Made by a program: the position numbers and the translations under genes. A DNA stretch of 45,135 nucleotides. Origin: Escherichia phage BMA1. Below the pieces are notes generated by a model, which ran no database searches, had not been told where the DNA came from, and worked only from the letters and a program-made list of their open reading frames with translations. This document shows, in pieces, positions 11,144 through 45,135 of the stretch; position 1 is the stretch's first letter, and every line of letters starts with the position of its first letter. The DNA lies in the sequence record PQ178821.1; one strand, given 5' to 3'.

Positions 11144-11848
11144 ATGAAACTTACTAAAGCAGAATATGACGCGTTGCCGGAAGGTATGAAGGCGCTTTTT
11201 GTTGCCGATGGTGACGGGTATAAATCAACGTTCATGACCGCAGAAGAAGTACAGGCGGAAATCAAGGGTCTGAAAGACAACAACGCGAAGCTGGTGAGCG
11301 AGAAGAAAGCAGAAGCCGAACGCCGCGCCGAAGCTGAGCGCCTTGCGAAAGAGAAAGAGGAGGCCGCCGCGCGCAAAAATGGCGACCTCGAAGCGATCGA
11401 CAAGTCCTGGAAAGATAAGTTTGCGAAACACGAAGCAGACACATCGGGAAAAATCGAAGCCTACCGCAAGCAGATCCACGATCTAACCATCGGCAGCGCT
11501 GCCAAAGACCTGGCGTCGAAGCTGTTCGGTAAGAATGCGGGAATCATGCAACGCCACGTAATGGACCGCCTGACGCTGGAAGACGGCGAAGACGGCAGCT
11601 TGAAAGTGCGTGTCTTGCAGGATGGTAAACCGTCCGCGCTGACTATGGAAGAGCTTGAAAAAGAGTTCCGTAATAACGCCGATTTTGCGTCCGTCCTGGC
11701 TGGCACGCCAGCCGGTGGCGCGCCTAGCAAACCGACGCAGGTTGTCGAAGATGTGAAGTCGAAAATCACTATGGGCCATAGCTTCGGCATCACTGACCTT
11801 ACGAAACAGGCGGGAGATATCATCGCGAAGATGGGCGACGACGAGTAA
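11144..11848 (+). CDS. scaffolding protein candidate (234 aa)
   Basis: Ala/Glu/Lys-rich coiled-coil-like sequence (AEAERRAEAERLAKEKEEAAARK); directly upstream of capsid gene; GGGGA RBS. Confidence 0.6.
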   Translation: MKLTKAEYDALPEGMKALFVADGDGYKSTFMTAEEVQAEIKGLKDNNAKLVSEKKAEAERRAEAERLAKEKEEAAARKNGDLEAIDKSWKDKFAKHEADTSGKIEAYRKQIHDLTIGSAAKDLASKLFGKNAGIMQRHVMDRLTLEDGEDGSLKVRVLQDGKPSALTMEELEKEFRNNADFASVLAGTPAGGAPSKPTQVVEDVKSKITMGHSFGITDLTKQAGDIIAKMGDDE

Positions 11849-13098: not shown

Positions 13099-13600
13099 AT
13101 GTNATGGCGACCCGCAAACCTTTGTTATTTATGCCGCTGCGCGAGGCGTTGAAATTACGCCGAGCGACGCAACGCGACACCTTACTATCGTTAATGACTT
13201 CCTTAACGGCATAGACTGGATCGGCGAACAAGCAGACCCGACCGGAATTGACGCATGGCCTCGCGTCAACTACCCGTCAGACGGTAAGCCGGTGCGAAAC
13301 ACGCTTACTGAAGATTTGGCAGTAGTTCCCGCGGGGCAGATTGTAGACTTCGCATCAATCCCTGTCGCCGTTGAGCAAGCCGTTTACCGGCTGGCAATGT
13401 TGGTGGCGGACGAGGTCGATATTTCTCCTGTTGGCAGTGGTAAGGAGACTATCCGCGAAACTGTTGGCCCGATCACGATGGAATATGACCCTGCGACGAT
13501 TGGTAGCGGTGTCTCGTTCCCGTGGTGGGATGGCTTGCTGGGCCACTGGATTGACTCCGACGGCAACGCAGCGGGTAATTTTGACGTATTCCGGGGGTGA
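13099..13600 (+). CDS. head-tail connector / head completion protein candidate, reading frame broken by ambiguous base at 13103
   Basis: AGGAG RBS and ATG 13099; long ORF continues in +1 frame to 13600; removing the N at 13103 joins them into one ~166-aa ORF. Confidence 0.45.
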
Positions 13601-16610: not shown

Positions 16611-16929
16611 AAGCGGGACAGGCGGGACGTCCCGTTTTGTCCCGCCTCTGTAAAACCACATATCTAATCACTTTTATTGCATAAACTCAAAGCGGGACAG
16701 GCGGGACGTCCCGTTTTGTCACACCCTGTAAATGTGCATACCTATGCAGATTTCGTGCATAAACCAAACGGGACAAAAAGCGGGACAAACACGAGGCGGG
16801 ACAAAGCGGGACAGCACCCCGTCCCCGCCAGTGCTGCCGCGGTTTTTAGCCGATCGGGACAGCGGGACAGCACCCCAGTCTTTCAGACTAGACGGGGGTC
16901 AATGGCCCCCCTCGTCTGAGACTGAATAA
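16611..16929. repeat. GCGGGACA iteron array with tandem ~76-bp subunits and terminal hairpin (copy 1)
   Basis: At least 9 GCGGGACA-like units; palindromes GCGGGACGTCCCG+TTTT at 16622..16638 and 16701..16717; 3' part near-identical to 44851..45025. Confidence 0.7.
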
Positions 16930-16992
16930 GGTTTGTTTTGAAATCGCTGATACAATATCCATCGGCAACTGCATAAAAAAGGGGACTGCATA

Positions 16993-39414: not shown

Positions 39415-40837
39415 TGCTTAAGTCCTCGTCAGTAGCTTCCGACCACGCAGGACGCGGGTCGTCGATCGGTGCTAACACCGGTTTTGCGGGTGCGCGTGTG
39501 ATTTTATCACACAGCTTAGCCCACACTTTCGGTTTTTCATCCTTCAGTACCTTCTCGGCATCCGTAGGGCTGAGCAATGTTTCTTTGTACATCACATCAC
39601 GCTTGATCCGGGCCTTCGTGAAGATTTCAATCACTTCGCTCTCGTCCGCCCACTTGCGGATCCCTTCCTTACCGGCAACCATCTTGAGGCCCAGCGATTC
39701 GCCGTCGCCCGCCATTACCGCCTTAAATACCGCGGACTCGATCGCTTTGATGTGCTGGCGCATTGCGTCCAGGCCTTCATAAGCCTTGCGCAATTCCGCA
39801 GCGCTCATAGCACCGGGGGCCGCTTCTTTCCTACCACGCTTCGCACGTCGTGCCGCCTTCCGGGCTTCGCGGGCCATATTGCGGTCATGGTTGGCGCATT
39901 CTTCCTCTGTTGCAATACTCACGTCGTCGCCCAGGTCTTCGTCGGTTGCCGTTGGTGGTGTCATCGTATCGATTGCGGCCTTCGCCCTGGCGCTACACTG
40001 ATCCGCAAATCGACACCACTGGCACGCATCAACGCTGGGGCGGAAGTCGGCACGGGTAAGCCCCTTCTTGCCTCGGGAATACGCCTCCAGTGCGGAAATA
40101 GCGCGCTTGGATGCAAACTTCGCGAATATCTCCAGGGCTTCTACCGTAATATCCCACTCCGACGCCCCGCCGCAATACGGCTGGAAGATAACCAGGCGCA
40201 CGGTCGTAATGTCGTACATAGTTTTCAGCTTGCGCAGCAGGCCGAGCGCATACAGCATGAGTTGTTTGTTTTCTTTCGCCTCGACCTTATGCCGCCCCGT
40301 CTTCAGGTCGCCAACAATCAGCATGTACGTGCCGTCGGTCTTCTTCATGACCATGACCATATCGGCAGTACCGAACGTCTTAACCCGGTTGCCGTCGATC
40401 TCGAATCCTGAATGAAGGACGCGGGTAAGATCGGCGCGCATCTCAAGCTGAACAAACTCCGCCACCTCGAGGAGTGGTCGCCAGTGGTCGATGTACGCGT
40501 CGCACTGTTTCACCATGTCGTCATTGACCAGTACGCCGCCTTTCGGCGCTTTCGGATGTGCCTTCACTGGCCCCTTGCCTTCGTTCTCGACGTAGCACCC
40601 TTTATACGTCTTTGCGGTTATCAGCTTTTCACCGGCGATAATGCGGTTTAGCACCACTTCAGATACGGTGTGCATACTCGTACCGTTAATCGCGGCTTGC
40701 CCGGATTCGTTCGGGATATCTTTTTCCACCACCAGGGCAGCAGGGCAACCCATCCACTTTTTAGCACCGGATGGACCGAGTAATGAATGTTCCGTATTAC
40801 TACCGGATTGTGTTTTGCGCTTCGGTTTAATCGCCAT
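39407..40837 (-). CDS. PD-(D/E)XK nuclease, DUF2800 / Cas4-like with Cys cluster (476 aa)
   Basis: HSLLGPSGAKKWMGCP N-terminus, GDLKTG...EAK nuclease-like motif, C-terminal CQWCRFADQC cluster. Confidence 0.6.
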   Translation of the reverse strand: MAIKPKRKTQSGSNTEHSLLGPSGAKKWMGCPAALVVEKDIPNESGQAAINGTSMHTVSEVVLNRIIAGEKLITAKTYKGCYVENEGKGPVKAHPKAPKGGVLVNDDMVKQCDAYIDHWRPLLEVAEFVQLEMRADLTRVLHSGFEIDGNRVKTFGTADMVMVMKKTDGTYMLIVGDLKTGRHKVEAKENKQLMLYALGLLRKLKTMYDITTVRLVIFQPYCGGASEWDITVEALEIFAKFASKRAISALEAYSRGKKGLTRADFRPSVDACQWCRFADQCSARAKAAIDTMTPPTATDEDLGDDVSIATEEECANHDRNMAREARKAARRAKRGRKEAAPGAMSAAELRKAYEGLDAMRQHIKAIESAVFKAVMAGDGESLGLKMVAGKEGIRKWADESEVIEIFTKARIKRDVMYKETLLSPTDAEKVLKDEKPKVWAKLCDKITRAPAKPVLAPIDDPRPAWSEATDEDLSNE

Positions 40838-42151: not shown

Positions 42152-42481
42152 ATGAATGTAAACGACGCAATCGAAATGTTAACTAAGACTGTTTGCAGTG
42201 AGACTAGCCGGTCCTGGGCGTATACCGATGCCGTGGGTGCGGTGCTATTTGAAATCGAACGTCTGCGACTTACCGAAAAAGAATTGCGCGCGAAGCTGGA
42301 ATTACTCAACGGTACGGCAGCCAGCAAGCTGCAAAAACACAATGAAGAAATGGAAGAATACAAAAAACAGGTTATCCGTCTACGTGAGGAAGGTAAATCC
42401 TGGGCGATGATTGCCGAGTTGACCGGAATTAATCAGAGCACAGTGCGCTCCTGGGTACGCAATAATAAAACTTCTAAGTAA
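42152..42481 (+). CDS. HTH DNA-binding protein (109 aa)
   Basis: C-terminal SWAMIAELTGINQSTVRSWV helix-turn-helix-like segment; first gene of rightward operon. Confidence 0.6.
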   Translation: MNVNDAIEMLTKTVCSETSRSWAYTDAVGAVLFEIERLRLTEKELRAKLELLNGTAASKLQKHNEEMEEYKKQVIRLREEGKSWAMIAELTGINQSTVRSWVRNNKTSK

Positions 42482-42491
42482 GGCCACGGCA

Positions 42492-44756
42492 ATGAGCTTA
42501 ATTAAATTCGCTGTAACAAGACCCGCTAAAAAAGGCGAAAAAGCCAGGGCGGAAAACTTCCAGATGACGACCGATGAATTTTTCGAATTTATCAAAGATG
42601 CGAAAGAGATATCGTCGGTGCATATCAACAAGACGGAAGATAAAGCCGAGTATGCGCGCCGCAAGCGTAAGGCCGATGGCATCGTAGCGTATACCTGTGA
42701 CGGCTTACGCCGCAAGACCAGTGCGGTGGACCGCTCGATCCTGTTCTTCGATATTGACCGTACCGACACCCGCACCCTACGCCGCTGCCGTAAGGCTTTC
42801 ATCGACGCGGGGCTGGAGCACGTATTTCACACCACAACCGGCGACCGCCACCCGCTGAAAGGCGGCACGCGTTGCGCTCGATTCCTGGTACTCACGGACA
42901 AGCCTGTACCGGCTGAAGACCTGGGCCGTGTCCAGTATGCGCTATTACACCAACTTGGTCTGTCAGATGTGGACTTCGACGATTGCACGAAAGACACAAA
43001 CCGCCTGATGTACCTGCCACACCAGCAGTCTGTTATTAAGTGCCACTACGGCAAGCGTGCCCGCGTCCGTCGTCTGCTTCGCCTGGCGGATAAGTTGGGC
43101 GTGGAGAAGGAGGAAGTACGCCGCGAGCTTACCCAGGGCGACGACGCAGTGGCAGACGGCATTCTGGACTGGTGCTTCCAGGCAGGATTCGAGGAGTTAT
43201 CTTCCGGTCGTGGTTATGAAGTGCCGTGCCCTAACGAACATCTGCACAGCGGCGAAGGGTCCACCGCTATCATGGTTAAGGATGGCGAGATCCGTTTCAA
43301 GTGTATGCACACCGGCAACGAGTGTTGCTCGGAACTGAACAGACACCAGCACCTGGCGCTACGTCTTATCGGGATCCCGGACCACCTGAACGTCGAACCG
43401 CACAATATGTCACGTAAGCAAATCGCCGCCATCCTTCCAGGACTGGACGACGAGGAAGTGGAATCGTGCTATGCGCATATCGTTGATGCGGTCGGAGACG
43501 GCGACGAGTACGGCGGATGTACGGACGCAGACCTGGACAACGAGCCGGTTGCCCTGTTCAGTAAGCACGACCCGATCATCGAGGGGTTGATTAACTTTAA
43601 ATCGACCTGGTATATGGCGGGCGAGTCGAACATCGGTAAATCGTTCTACGTGCTGGGGCAAATGGGCGCTGTTGCCGCCGGTATTCCGTTCGGTGGTGCG
43701 AAGGTTGTCCAGTCGCATTGCTTCTATTTCGATGCGGAAGGTGGCGAAGCCTCCAACCAGCGTAAGGAAGCATTGCAGATTAAATATGAGCACGACCTGG
43801 ACAAGCTGCACATTATCGACCTGCAATCACGCGGCTGGGATATCACCAGCAAATCCGGCTTGCGTGAAGTTATCAGCTTCATCAACCGCACCGCTAACGG
43901 CGAACCGGTTGGCCTGGTGGCGTTCGACTCACTCAACCAGACTGTTGCGTTGCGGTCCGCCGATGCTAAACCGTTCGACGAGAACAACGCCAGCGATATG
44001 GGCGAAGTGGTCAAGGCGCTGAAGGCCATTGCGGAAAACACAGGCGGCAGTGCGGGAGTCATCCACCACCCGGCTAAAGGTGCAAACGGCAGCAGAACCC
44101 CCCGCGGATCCGGCGCGCTGCATGGTGCTGTTGATTCTGCTTTCTTCCTGGAGCAACCAGACGACAACCAGCCCGGACAATTGAACCTGTATCATGAGAA
44201 GTCTCGTAACGGCATCAAGCAAGCGCCGCGCGGCTTCGTCCTGCTCAAGTGCAAGGTTAAGGTGGATCTCCGCAAGTCCGAGGCGTTCGAATCACACCAG
44301 TCCACCAGCGCCGGGCCTGACTTCGGCGATGTGGTTGCCGGTTGGGACGTCAAGCCAATTGCCTCCACGCCACGCGACGAGACGCTTTACCTCGTACCGG
44401 TCGCCCTGGCACCGTTCGCCATCGAACAGGCGAAGGCGGCGGGCAAGACCGCAGTTAAGGAAGAGAACGCCGCAGGCCCGCGCAACGAAAAAGAGAAAGT
44501 GCTTTATGCAGCGCTGGAAAAACTGATGGAAGATAACCCGGACCATACCGGATTCAGTAAATCGGCAATTGTCCGCCAGGCGGGATTGGCAAAAGGTGGC
44601 ACATCGACGAAGGCAATAGACGATATGGTCGAGCGCGGCGTGCTTGGGTTTTACACAGACCCACACACCGGGGCCATCTATGGGTCGTCTAATATCGTCA
44701 TCAAAACGAATATACCCATCACGCTTTCGGCGACCGATGACGACCTGAAAGATTAA
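42492..44756 (+). CDS. primase-helicase fusion (754 aa)
   Basis: N-terminal FFDIDRTD primase-type acidic motif; central Walker A GESNIGKS; size similar to phage primase-helicases. Confidence 0.8.
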   Translation: MSLIKFAVTRPAKKGEKARAENFQMTTDEFFEFIKDAKEISSVHINKTEDKAEYARRKRKADGIVAYTCDGLRRKTSAVDRSILFFDIDRTDTRTLRRCRKAFIDAGLEHVFHTTTGDRHPLKGGTRCARFLVLTDKPVPAEDLGRVQYALLHQLGLSDVDFDDCTKDTNRLMYLPHQQSVIKCHYGKRARVRRLLRLADKLGVEKEEVRRELTQGDDAVADGILDWCFQAGFEELSSGRGYEVPCPNEHLHSGEGSTAIMVKDGEIRFKCMHTGNECCSELNRHQHLALRLIGIPDHLNVEPHNMSRKQIAAILPGLDDEEVESCYAHIVDAVGDGDEYGGCTDADLDNEPVALFSKHDPIIEGLINFKSTWYMAGESNIGKSFYVLGQMGAVAAGIPFGGAKVVQSHCFYFDAEGGEASNQRKEALQIKYEHDLDKLHIIDLQSRGWDITSKSGLREVISFINRTANGEPVGLVAFDSLNQTVALRSADAKPFDENNASDMGEVVKALKAIAENTGGSAGVIHHPAKGANGSRTPRGSGALHGAVDSAFFLEQPDDNQPGQLNLYHEKSRNGIKQAPRGFVLLKCKVKVDLRKSEAFESHQSTSAGPDFGDVVAGWDVKPIASTPRDETLYLVPVALAPFAIEQAKAAGKTAVKEENAAGPRNEKEKVLYAALEKLMEDNPDHTGFSKSAIVRQAGLAKGGTSTKAIDDMVERGVLGFYTDPHTGAIYGSSNIVIKTNIPITLSATDDDLKD

Positions 44757-44767
44757 TTTGTGCGCGT

Positions 44768-44812
44768 ATTGGTTGCCATTTTGAGTGTTTTTATCTGGCC
44801 GCATTGGTTGCC
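44768..44812 (+). promoter_or_regulatory. Two direct ATTGGTTGCC motifs 35 bp apart
   Basis: 44768..44777 and 44803..44812, just after the primase-helicase stop. Confidence 0.4.
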
Positions 44813-44850
44813 GTGTAGTGTAAATATAATGAATAGTTATGCAATAAAAC

Positions 44851-45025
44851 TGCATAAACTAAGCGGGACAAAAAGCGGGACAGACAAGGGGCGGGACAAA
44901 GCGGGACAGCACCCCCGTCCCGCCCCGGATGGCGCGGCCTGGCGAGGAGCGGGACAGCGGGACAGCACCCCAGTCTTTCAGACTAGACGGGGGTCAATGG
45001 CCCCCCTCGTCTGAGACTGAATAAA
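44851..45025. repeat. GCGGGACA iteron array with terminal hairpin (copy 2)
   Basis: About 85% identical to 16756..16929 overall; last ~75 bp identical, including the imperfect hairpin. Confidence 0.7.
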
Positions 45026-45135
45026 ATCCGGGGATTGCAAAATACACGGCAGCATGTTGCGAAGTGCGGTCGCGGATGAACTAGGCAACCAATGCGGGTT
45101 GCATTATGCGGAGTGAAAAACGCAGTTTGCAGATT

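Follow-up and report, generated by a model that had tools for sequence, protein, structure and literature searches.

A repeat-and-hairpin element present twice in Escherichia phage BMA1 is a candidate replication origin for its helicase-primase

What is the function of a repeat-rich element that a phage carries twice, once directly after its helicase-primase gene and once in front of its tape-measure gene? The question is raised by Escherichia phage BMA1 (PQ178821.1). Its 45,135-nt sequence, the window of this analysis, is a circular permutation of an entire Dhillonvirus (HK578-like siphophage) genome, because a query that joins the end of the window to its start (44757-45135 plus 1-103, ~481 nt) aligns in one unbroken piece in relatives. 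The original prediction, made from the letters alone, described 44851-45025 as the second copy of an element at 16756-16929 and proposed a possible bipartite origin. Here the copy that follows the helicase-primase operon is called B (44830-45054) and the other copy, which lies inside the 385 bp that separate the tail chaperone gene from the tape-measure gene (start codon 16993), is called A (16735-16969). On balance we lean towards the reading that each element is an iteron-plus-hairpin origin of replication read by the C-terminus of the helicase-primase.

The two copies are closely related. By blastn, 44851-45025 and 16756-16929 are 87.9% identical over 174 nt, in agreement with the ~85% over ~175 bp noticed at first, and 89% of the columns are identical in a pairwise A/B alignment of 211 nt. 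The final ~75 bp had been reported as the same in both, and there is indeed an exact 75-bp block (44950-45024 and 16855-16929) that contains the hairpin GACGGGGGTCAATGGCCCCCCTCGTC. The stretch first reported, placed ~95 nt past the primase-helicase stop, starts 94 nt after the stop codon that ends at 44756. Its position was thus correct but its extent was too short: A/B similarity begins further upstream, at 44830 and 16735, with a palindromic box, and a further conserved block lies downstream of the reported end (45044-45054; 16961-16969). The repeat GCGGGACA occurs 16 times, whereas 100 shuffles that preserve dinucleotides give a mean of 1.9 and a maximum of 6; 13 of these occurrences fall in loci A and B, both intergenic. 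The element is matched in 158 phage records (340 places, usually two or three per record), at 80-99% identity and almost all from Dhillonvirus of Escherichia or Shigella, which bears out the conservation of both copies in relatives. Locus B is internal and contiguous across the window ends in relatives, and the view that it is not a terminal repeat therefore stands. Both the strong over-representation of GCGGGACA at two intergenic loci and the conservation of these loci in 158 records argue for an origin.

The anatomy of the element was derived from an alignment of 41 distinct copies and from eight whole genomes. Copy B consists of the following parts:

44830-44843, plus strand: box 1, the palindrome TGAATAGTTATGCA
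44851-44864, plus strand: box 2, a degenerate copy of it, TGCATAAACTAAGC, 21 bp after box 1
44863-44908, plus strand: repeats R1-R4, GCGGGACA, at 44863, 44875, 44891 and 44901
44888-44926, plus strand: hairpin 1, GGGGCGGGAC...GTCCCGCCCC, made of repeat R3 and an inverted copy of the repeat
44927-44948, plus strand: copy-specific linker, unlike the linker of A
44949-44964, plus strand: repeats R5-R6
44971-45019, plus strand: hairpin 2, a 49-nt imperfect palindrome
45044-45054, plus strand: conserved block ACACGGCAGCA

At locus A the corresponding parts are preceded by two extra partial units:

16613-16646 and 16692-16725, plus strand: extra partial units, each GCGGGACAGGCGGGACGTCCCGTTTTGTC..., with repeats and a palindrome like hairpin 1
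16735-16748, plus strand: first box, TGCATACCTATGCA
16756-16769, plus strand: second box, TGCATAAACCAAAC
16768-16813, plus strand: repeats R1-R4
16795-16829, plus strand: hairpin 1, followed by the A-specific linker
16854-16869, plus strand: repeats R5-R6
16876-16924, plus strand: hairpin 2, with the same sequence as that of B in BMA1
16948-16956, plus strand: extended -10-like sequence TGATACAAT, downstream of the copy
16961-16969, plus strand: conserved block ATCGGCAAC, just before the tape-measure start codon

R1-R4 are four CGGGACA direct repeats spaced by 12, 16 and 10 nt. Every copy, also in distant lineages, keeps the palindromic boxes with their 21-bp period. Next to the repeats there is an AT-rich stretch, a further feature that argues for an origin: 44812-44862 is 75% A+T, and the corresponding part of copy A is weaker at 59%, in Dhillonvirus genomes with ~46% A+T (54% G+C) (PMC6563267). 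The lower part of hairpin 2 (CAGTCTTTCAGACTAGAC / GTCTGAGACTG) is invariant in all 41 copies, while its apical stem of 5-6 G opposite 5-6 C keeps its pairing as the loop varies; across the 41 copies, 97.9% of the cells of this hairpin are paired. Folded as DNA, hairpin 2 has a z-score of -3.8 on both strands and hairpin 1, foldable as RNA or DNA, one of -3.5 on either strand. Covariation within Dhillonvirus is little informative, as hairpin 2 is near-invariant and the alignment of hairpin 1 shifts, and it is the comparison across lineages that is informative.

The boxes follow the pattern TG(A/C)AT-N4-ATGCA even in relatives with 37-45% protein identity, and they match the conserved ARG-box positions (G4, A6, T7, A12, T13, C15). 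Their spacing matches the 18+3-bp design of E. coli ArgR operators (PMC6640053). From this resemblance, ArgR might be imagined as a host factor acting at the boxes. In HK578, the counterpart of the partial units of locus A is annotated as a rho-independent terminator, the TTTT of which is absent in divergent LM40P1 genomes.

Several other readings of the same DNA were tried and set aside. The open reading frames that overlap the two copies (44760-45014 and 16677-16919) are annotated as "hypothetical protein" in several records, but 1-nt insertions and deletions between close relatives do not preserve the frame, and conservation tracks the repeats and stems. A G-quadruplex is not indicated, as two distant lineages discussed below (L092 and AH01) have no G-runs; a sponge for CsrA was rejected since the A-N-GGA context is absent from the repeats; and a sigma-54 promoter, suggested by two TGCA motifs at a distance of 11 nt, was rejected because the GG is missing. 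A sigma-70 reading of TGAATA/17/CATAAA is weak. Rfam scans of the whole window at the gathering threshold, and of both loci at E<=10, gave nothing meaningful.

The comparison with distant relatives of the helicase-primase is the main evidence on function. Relatives with 37-48% identity in this protein carry one element of the same build directly 3′ of the stop codon of that gene; they include Pantoea phage AH01 and Hafnia phage TS33 (both Guernseyvirinae) and several metagenomic contigs. In all, the same architecture directly follows the homologous gene in at least 10 lineages, with repeats that are lineage-specific, and this lends comparative support to the first interpretation of the repeats as iterons. 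The common build is a pair of boxes with a 21-bp period, three or four repeats, hairpin 1, a linker, two further repeats, a long GC-centred hairpin and the block ACGGCAGC, and hairpin 1 is again a repeat with its own inverted copy. We found at least eight repeat variants across lineages, among them CGGACAA in AH01, AGGGAT in TS33 and L200 and, in lineages that carry our own labels, CCGACA (L092), GGGATAA (L093), GGGGATGA (L097), TTGCGAGT (L198) and TTGCGAAT (L199). That an element with the same order of parts directly follows the homologous gene in distant lineages argues for an origin that works together with this protein.

The lower arms of hairpin 2 also vary by lineage and stay complementary (AGTCT/AGACT, TCCTC/GAGGA, TCTCC/GGAGA, ATCATC/GATGAT), and these compensatory changes likewise favour an origin. 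Within one phage there are two such arm pairs, the loops of which are unequal in length; because of this difference, we interpret the arms as forming a hairpin or cruciform, not two double-stranded sites for a protein dimer. Despite the differing repeats, an ACGGCA(G/A)C core is present 25-45 nt past hairpin 2 in every lineage examined (for example at L092 5385, L093 6502, L097 6486 and L183 11146, with a few other sites in some relatives), and this block could be a priming or loading site. The complete genomes of AH01 and TS33 hold a single cluster, the one after the helicase-primase gene, from which we conclude that B is the ancestral copy and that A looks like a Dhillonvirus-specific duplicate. 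The iteron part of the original prediction is thus strengthened by comparison. The idea of an obligatory pair, as in ori/crr, is not supported, as relatives do not in general need another copy far away.

AH01 and L092 link the element to one domain of the protein. Their helicase-primases are ~97% identical over residues 1-660 and ~40% identical in the last 100 residues, and their repeats differ (CGGACAA vs CCGACA). At the DNA level, identity is low (40-70%) in a block that covers the coding sequence of the C-terminal domain and continues as far as the end of hairpin 2, between flanks that are 84-100% identical. Since the divergence spans the two, the C-terminal domain and the element behave as one cassette, and their joint divergence is among the reasons for the origin reading. 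The genes concerned in BMA1 are:

42152-42481, plus strand: small helix-turn-helix (HTH) protein, 109 aa, HTH_23 / Sigma70_r4_2-like, first gene of the operon
42492-44756, plus strand: helicase-primase, 754 aa (Pfam AAA_25, E 2.4e-19; PHROG 3228 "replicative helicase-primase")
44487-44702, plus strand: C-terminal domain of the helicase-primase, ~residues 666-737, a predicted winged helix and the candidate reader of the repeats

The ATPase core of the helicase-primase is a RepA/DnaB-like AAA_25 domain and its N-terminal domain has a DxD motif (FFDIDR); a sequence search of the PDB with the protein gave only a weak match to RSF1010 RepA (1G8Y). The C-terminal domain has no Pfam match, and a search for homologues with this fragment by itself returned one match. 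An AlphaFold2 model built from a 42-sequence alignment has a mean predicted local distance difference test score (pLDDT) of 72, with core blocks at 77-90, and the topology H-H-H-strand-strand; a single-sequence model was of low confidence (pLDDT 44). The top Foldseek matches of the model in the PDB are all winged-helix proteins (ArsR-type, linker histone H1, the MarR family, LexA and the winged helix of ORC), with weak E-values of 0.05-0.5. That the domain models as a winged helix, weak as these E-values are, favours the origin reading, and together with the natural swap it lends comparative support to the role in DNA recognition that had been suggested for the C-terminal region. The 109-aa HTH protein is, from its predicted domain, an alternative candidate for the binding protein. 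The helicase-primase also ends in an acidic tail, DDDLKD (44739-44756), with D.DLE in relatives. It recalls the acidic tails at the C-termini of T7 gp4 and gp2.5, which contact DNA polymerase.

Arrays of CGGGACA are also present elsewhere. In three unrelated sequences from IMG/VR (contigs of 52-55 kb and a fragment: L186, L188 and L194), the heptamer is arrayed at intervals of 11 nt within lambda-O-like or DnaD-like initiator genes, and because 11 is no multiple of 3 we regard the arrays as a feature of the DNA. The interior of an initiator gene is the classic position of lambdoid origins. These arrays are probably lambdoid-type origins using the same heptamer, and their location inside initiator genes is another argument for the origin reading of the BMA1 element. 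The 19-mer CGGGACARAAAGCGGGACA is present in unrelated viral contigs too. A plasmid search found one homologue, 34% identical, with no element, and a search of IMG/VR with the tape-measure protein found unrelated prophages only.

Within Dhillonvirus, the copies appear to be old and to influence each other. The linker differs between A and B, yet it is kept among A copies and among B copies of different phages, and because of this conservation among orthologs we consider the duplication old. The 18-mer of hairpin 2 is confined to Dhillonvirus contigs, with two per genome. In the region from R5 to hairpin 2, the same rare variant is often found in both copies of one genome; EP23, for instance, has AACTCC and the loop CAGCGG in both, and in other genomes the copies differ. 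Since rare variants are so often common to both copies, A and B seem to exchange sequence now and then, and on this pattern gene conversion may partly keep A similar to B. The pair of loci is not a new observation, as the GenBank record of Sodalis phage SO-1 (NC_013600) already annotates both as repeat_region, "region A" at 11214-11597 and "region B" at 40178-40657, and describes them as direct, inverted and palindromic repeats that are similar to each other. Our literature searches found no paper that analyses the two elements. What is new here are the single elements of the same build in distant lineages, the co-divergence between AH01 and L092, and the winged-helix model.

These observations suggest a working scheme. 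The analysis establishes the anatomy of the element and its conservation, the covariation of its structures, the joint divergence of element and domain, and the prediction of a winged-helix fold. We infer from these that the helicase-primase would bind the element and fire an origin there, with roles for hairpin 2 and the block ACGGCAGC. The lineage-specific direct repeats (CGGGACA in BMA1) would be iterons bound by the C-terminal winged helix. The bound helicase-primase would then assemble beside the AT-rich boxes and the long palindrome of hairpin 2, which may extrude or melt, and boxes and palindrome together would supply single-stranded DNA on which the ring helicase could load and the primase could start. 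The block ACGGCAGC, universally conserved, is a candidate start site for priming. Copy B, directly 3′ of the gene, would be the ancestral site, and copy A, in the tail-gene operon, would be a Dhillonvirus-specific duplicate, used either as another origin or as an accessory site for binding.

Several points weigh against an origin. It is one clean natural swap that links the domain to the repeats, and L092 and L093 combine different repeats with winged-helix sequences that are fairly alike. The Foldseek E-values are weak and a mean pLDDT of 72 is modest for a fold assignment. The element is missing from that position in some lineages that do have a homologue (L088-L091, L095 and the E. coli record CP088689). 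Cumulative GC skew, which turns at 41-42 kb and at 29 kb, tracks gene orientation and shows nothing at either copy. Copy A, for its part, sits in the middle of a late operon, an unusual place for an origin. All repeats are co-oriented with transcription and the G.U pairs of the apical stem on the plus strand would suit an RNA as well, and the promoter-like sites after both copies allow for a regulatory role.

These last points belong to two rival explanations. In one, the element is a control region for transcription, and its repeats are the target of a phage protein, either the helicase-primase itself or the small HTH protein, that activates, represses or insulates downstream promoters, namely a lysis and head promoter after B and a tape-measure and tail promoter after A, with hairpin 2 as a barrier to read-through. 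We consider this scheme as a whole unlikely, although both copies are directly upstream of gene blocks in the same orientation and promoter-like sequences do follow them. The extended -10-like TGATACAAT, found 25 nt past copy A and 37 nt ahead of the start codon of the tape-measure gene, might serve the tail genes as a promoter of their own; it is conserved, as is CTGATACAA(T), throughout the eight aligned A copies; TTGCGT-17-TATATT is found at 44-72 after copy B; and in AH01, L092 and L093 a near-consensus sigma-70 promoter of the next operon is present ~50 nt after the element. The resemblance of the boxes to ArgR operators, in sequence and in their 21-bp spacing, would fit a control region too. 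However, the element accompanies the gene for the helicase-primase, with its C-terminal domain, rather than the genes downstream, as these are not the same in AH01 and L092, and relatives with separate head and tail blocks need one copy only. Scans of both loci for consensus sigma-70 promoters and intrinsic terminators found none on the plus strand. Neither hairpin 1 nor hairpin 2 is a terminator-like site on that strand; hairpin 2 has no U-tract, is followed by GAAUAA and was not scored as a terminator. Six to eight repeats and two conserved hairpins would also be elaborate for an operator.

The other rival reads the plus strand as a structured RNA, either as part of a longer transcript (the 3′ end of the helicase-primase mRNA for B, the late mRNA for A) or as a small RNA of its own, with a role in HK022 put-like processive antitermination, in T7-like processing by RNase III that stabilises the mRNA, or in sequestering a protein specific for GGA-containing repeats, as a sponge. 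We regard this as rather improbable. In every lineage the repeats and the two hairpins point in the direction of transcription, and folding as RNA gives z-scores of -2.1 for B and -3.6 for A. U.G pairs on the plus strand and one change from G-C to G-U are seen in the apical stem, and a GGA core is common to most repeat variants. The layout of two stems and the presence of two copies per genome recall putL and putR. Yet put-type sites are a transcribed leader that comes after its promoter, and because the sigma-70 promoter of the next operon follows the element in AH01, L092 and L093, the element is not the leader of that operon, a point that also counts in favour of an origin. There was no match to an Rfam family even with E up to 10, the two DNA strands fold equally well, and the L092 repeats (CCGACA) are without GGA. 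Palindromic boxes with a 21-bp period are a feature of duplex DNA; the coordinated change of all repeats along with the adjacent protein domain points to a partner that binds DNA sequence-specifically. A packaging signal, a genome terminus or a mini-element like a miniature inverted-repeat transposable element (MITE) inserted twice seems hardly credible. Several GenBank records do start ~105 nt after copy B, and inverted motifs like TGAATA/TATTCA bound the element in some lineages, but B is internal and contiguous in most records, the small terminase gene (terS) is ~5 kb downstream of it, and the 18-mer of hairpin 2 is found twice per genome in Dhillonvirus contigs only. Both copies have fixed positions throughout the 158 records, and orthologous copies keep their own type of linker, which indicates an old element that has not moved recently and goes against the mobile mini-element that the original prediction had listed as an alternative.

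The origin reading can be placed in the gene map, for which we used the annotation of Bas84, SO-1 and HK578 together with the list of open reading frames. A plus-strand block from the start of the window to ~28.9 kb holds small genes and the lysis, terminase, head and tail genes; a minus-strand block from ~28.9 to 42.0 kb holds the replication and nucleotide-metabolism genes; and the short plus-strand operon of the HTH protein and the helicase-primase (42152-42481, then 42492-44756) comes next, with copy B behind it. The window has eight ambiguous bases (N), at 13103, 34769, 34780, 34782, 34956, 35180, 41057 and 41943, and none is within either element. Dhillonvirus records including MK373789, ON548431 and NC_073058 begin ~105 nt after copy B, as does the window, and this common start point is probably a convention of co-linearisation. 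The sequences recorded as Campylobacter phage A144 and as Acinetobacter phage NJ01 are those of ordinary Dhillonvirus.

A second motif, ATTGGTTGC, is present around copy B. It has 14 exact copies, and 27 with at most one mismatch compared with 12.7 expected. The positions are 40-48, 71-79, 44768-44776, 44803-44811, 45085-45093 (minus strand), 11019/11033 (minus), 30127/30138, 31800/31817 (minus), 35318/35330 (minus), 39137/39153, 41953 and 27129 (minus). Five of these flank copy B, and most are paired, intergenic and oriented as the downstream gene. The TTGC of the motif often starts a -35-like hexamer 17 nt ahead of a -10-like hexamer, and related repeats, TTGG(T/C)TG or GCAACCAAC, are found at the same junction in TS33, L097, L185, L096 and L198-L200. 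We suggest that ATTGGTTGC is probably a promoter or operator motif, for which the 109-aa Sigma70_r4-like HTH protein is a candidate binder.

If the origin reading is true, an element of ~230 bp and a candidate protein reader provide a directly testable origin, the conserved 385-bp non-coding gap before the tape-measure gene is explained, and the region is one to keep intact, or to exploit, when Dhillonvirus genomes are engineered. The natural swap of domain and repeat would be a compact system for the evolution of origin specificity. Dhillonvirus and Guernseyvirinae are among the most often isolated phages of E. coli and Salmonella, and such phages are used in the BASEL collection, in studies of defence systems and in phage engineering. 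We tentatively raise a wider possibility, held as a single joint proposal, that the element represents a widespread, uncharacterised class of phage origins serving the PHROG 3228 helicase-primases of Dhillonvirus, Guernseyvirinae and related small siphophages, in which a swappable C-terminal winged helix would read lineage-specific iterons, an invariant scaffold (ARG-box-like sites 21 bp apart, the double-palindrome hairpin and the block ACGGCAGC) would aid loading and priming, and Dhillonviruses alone would carry two origins, homogenised by gene conversion. Replication initiation would then meet late transcription at the origin in the tail operon. Should the origin reading prove wrong, the element would still be a conserved structured module hidden under spurious "hypothetical protein" reading frames.

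How does the proposed origin compare with known systems? In satellite phage P4, the alpha protein binds both ori and crr. BMA1 resembles P4 in having short octamer-like direct repeats clustered at two sites far apart, of which one directly follows the gene. As in P4 alpha, primase, helicase and C-terminal winged helix (here a prediction) are combined in one polypeptide (PMC4234260). Alpha, however, is a Toprim primase with a superfamily 3 (SF3) helicase, whereas the Dhillonvirus protein has a RepA/DnaB-like AAA_25 core and an N-terminal DxD motif, with no homology between them; moreover, the relatives of BMA1 have a single site and the BMA1 element adds a conserved long hairpin and palindromic boxes. 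The P4 analogy of the original prediction therefore gains comparative support as an arrangement but does not extend to descent. In the archaeal plasmid pRN1 (ORF904) and Bordetella phage BIP-1, an essential long stem-loop lies just 3′ of a gene for a primase-helicase-winged-helix protein (PMC4234260). The Dhillonvirus operon is similar, with a small DNA-binding protein followed by a multidomain replication protein that has a predicted C-terminal winged helix, and with a long conserved stem-loop, hairpin 2, directly 3′ of the replication gene. It differs from pRN1, which has an SF3 helicase and no iterons, in combining iterons with a hairpin, in its SF4-like core and in the duplication of the element; the set of AEP prim-pol, SF3 helicase and winged helix is not what we found, the helicase core being AAA_25 / RepA-like. 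Origins 3′ of such a gene in pRN1, BIP-1 and P4 are a precedent that argues for the origin reading. The oriV of RSF1010 (IncQ) has iterons, GC-rich and AT-rich segments and the hairpins ssiA and ssiB for the RepB′ primase, with RepA as the helicase (PMC4234260). The combination of repeats, in BMA1 putative iterons, with palindromic hairpins, which may likewise aid priming, and a RepA-type helicase core (the weak 1G8Y match) are shared features. In RSF1010, however, the work is divided among three separate proteins, of which RepC binds the iterons, in contrast to the one polypeptide proposed for Dhillonvirus, and the DNA elements have no sequence similarity. Bacillus phage SPP1, with oriL and oriR, also has two distant copies of initiator-binding repeats, one of them in the late region. 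The initiators of SPP1 and of lambdoid phages (G38P and O) are of another type and are not fused to a helicase-primase, but the lambdoid phages, too, have iteron arrays beside or inside the initiator gene.

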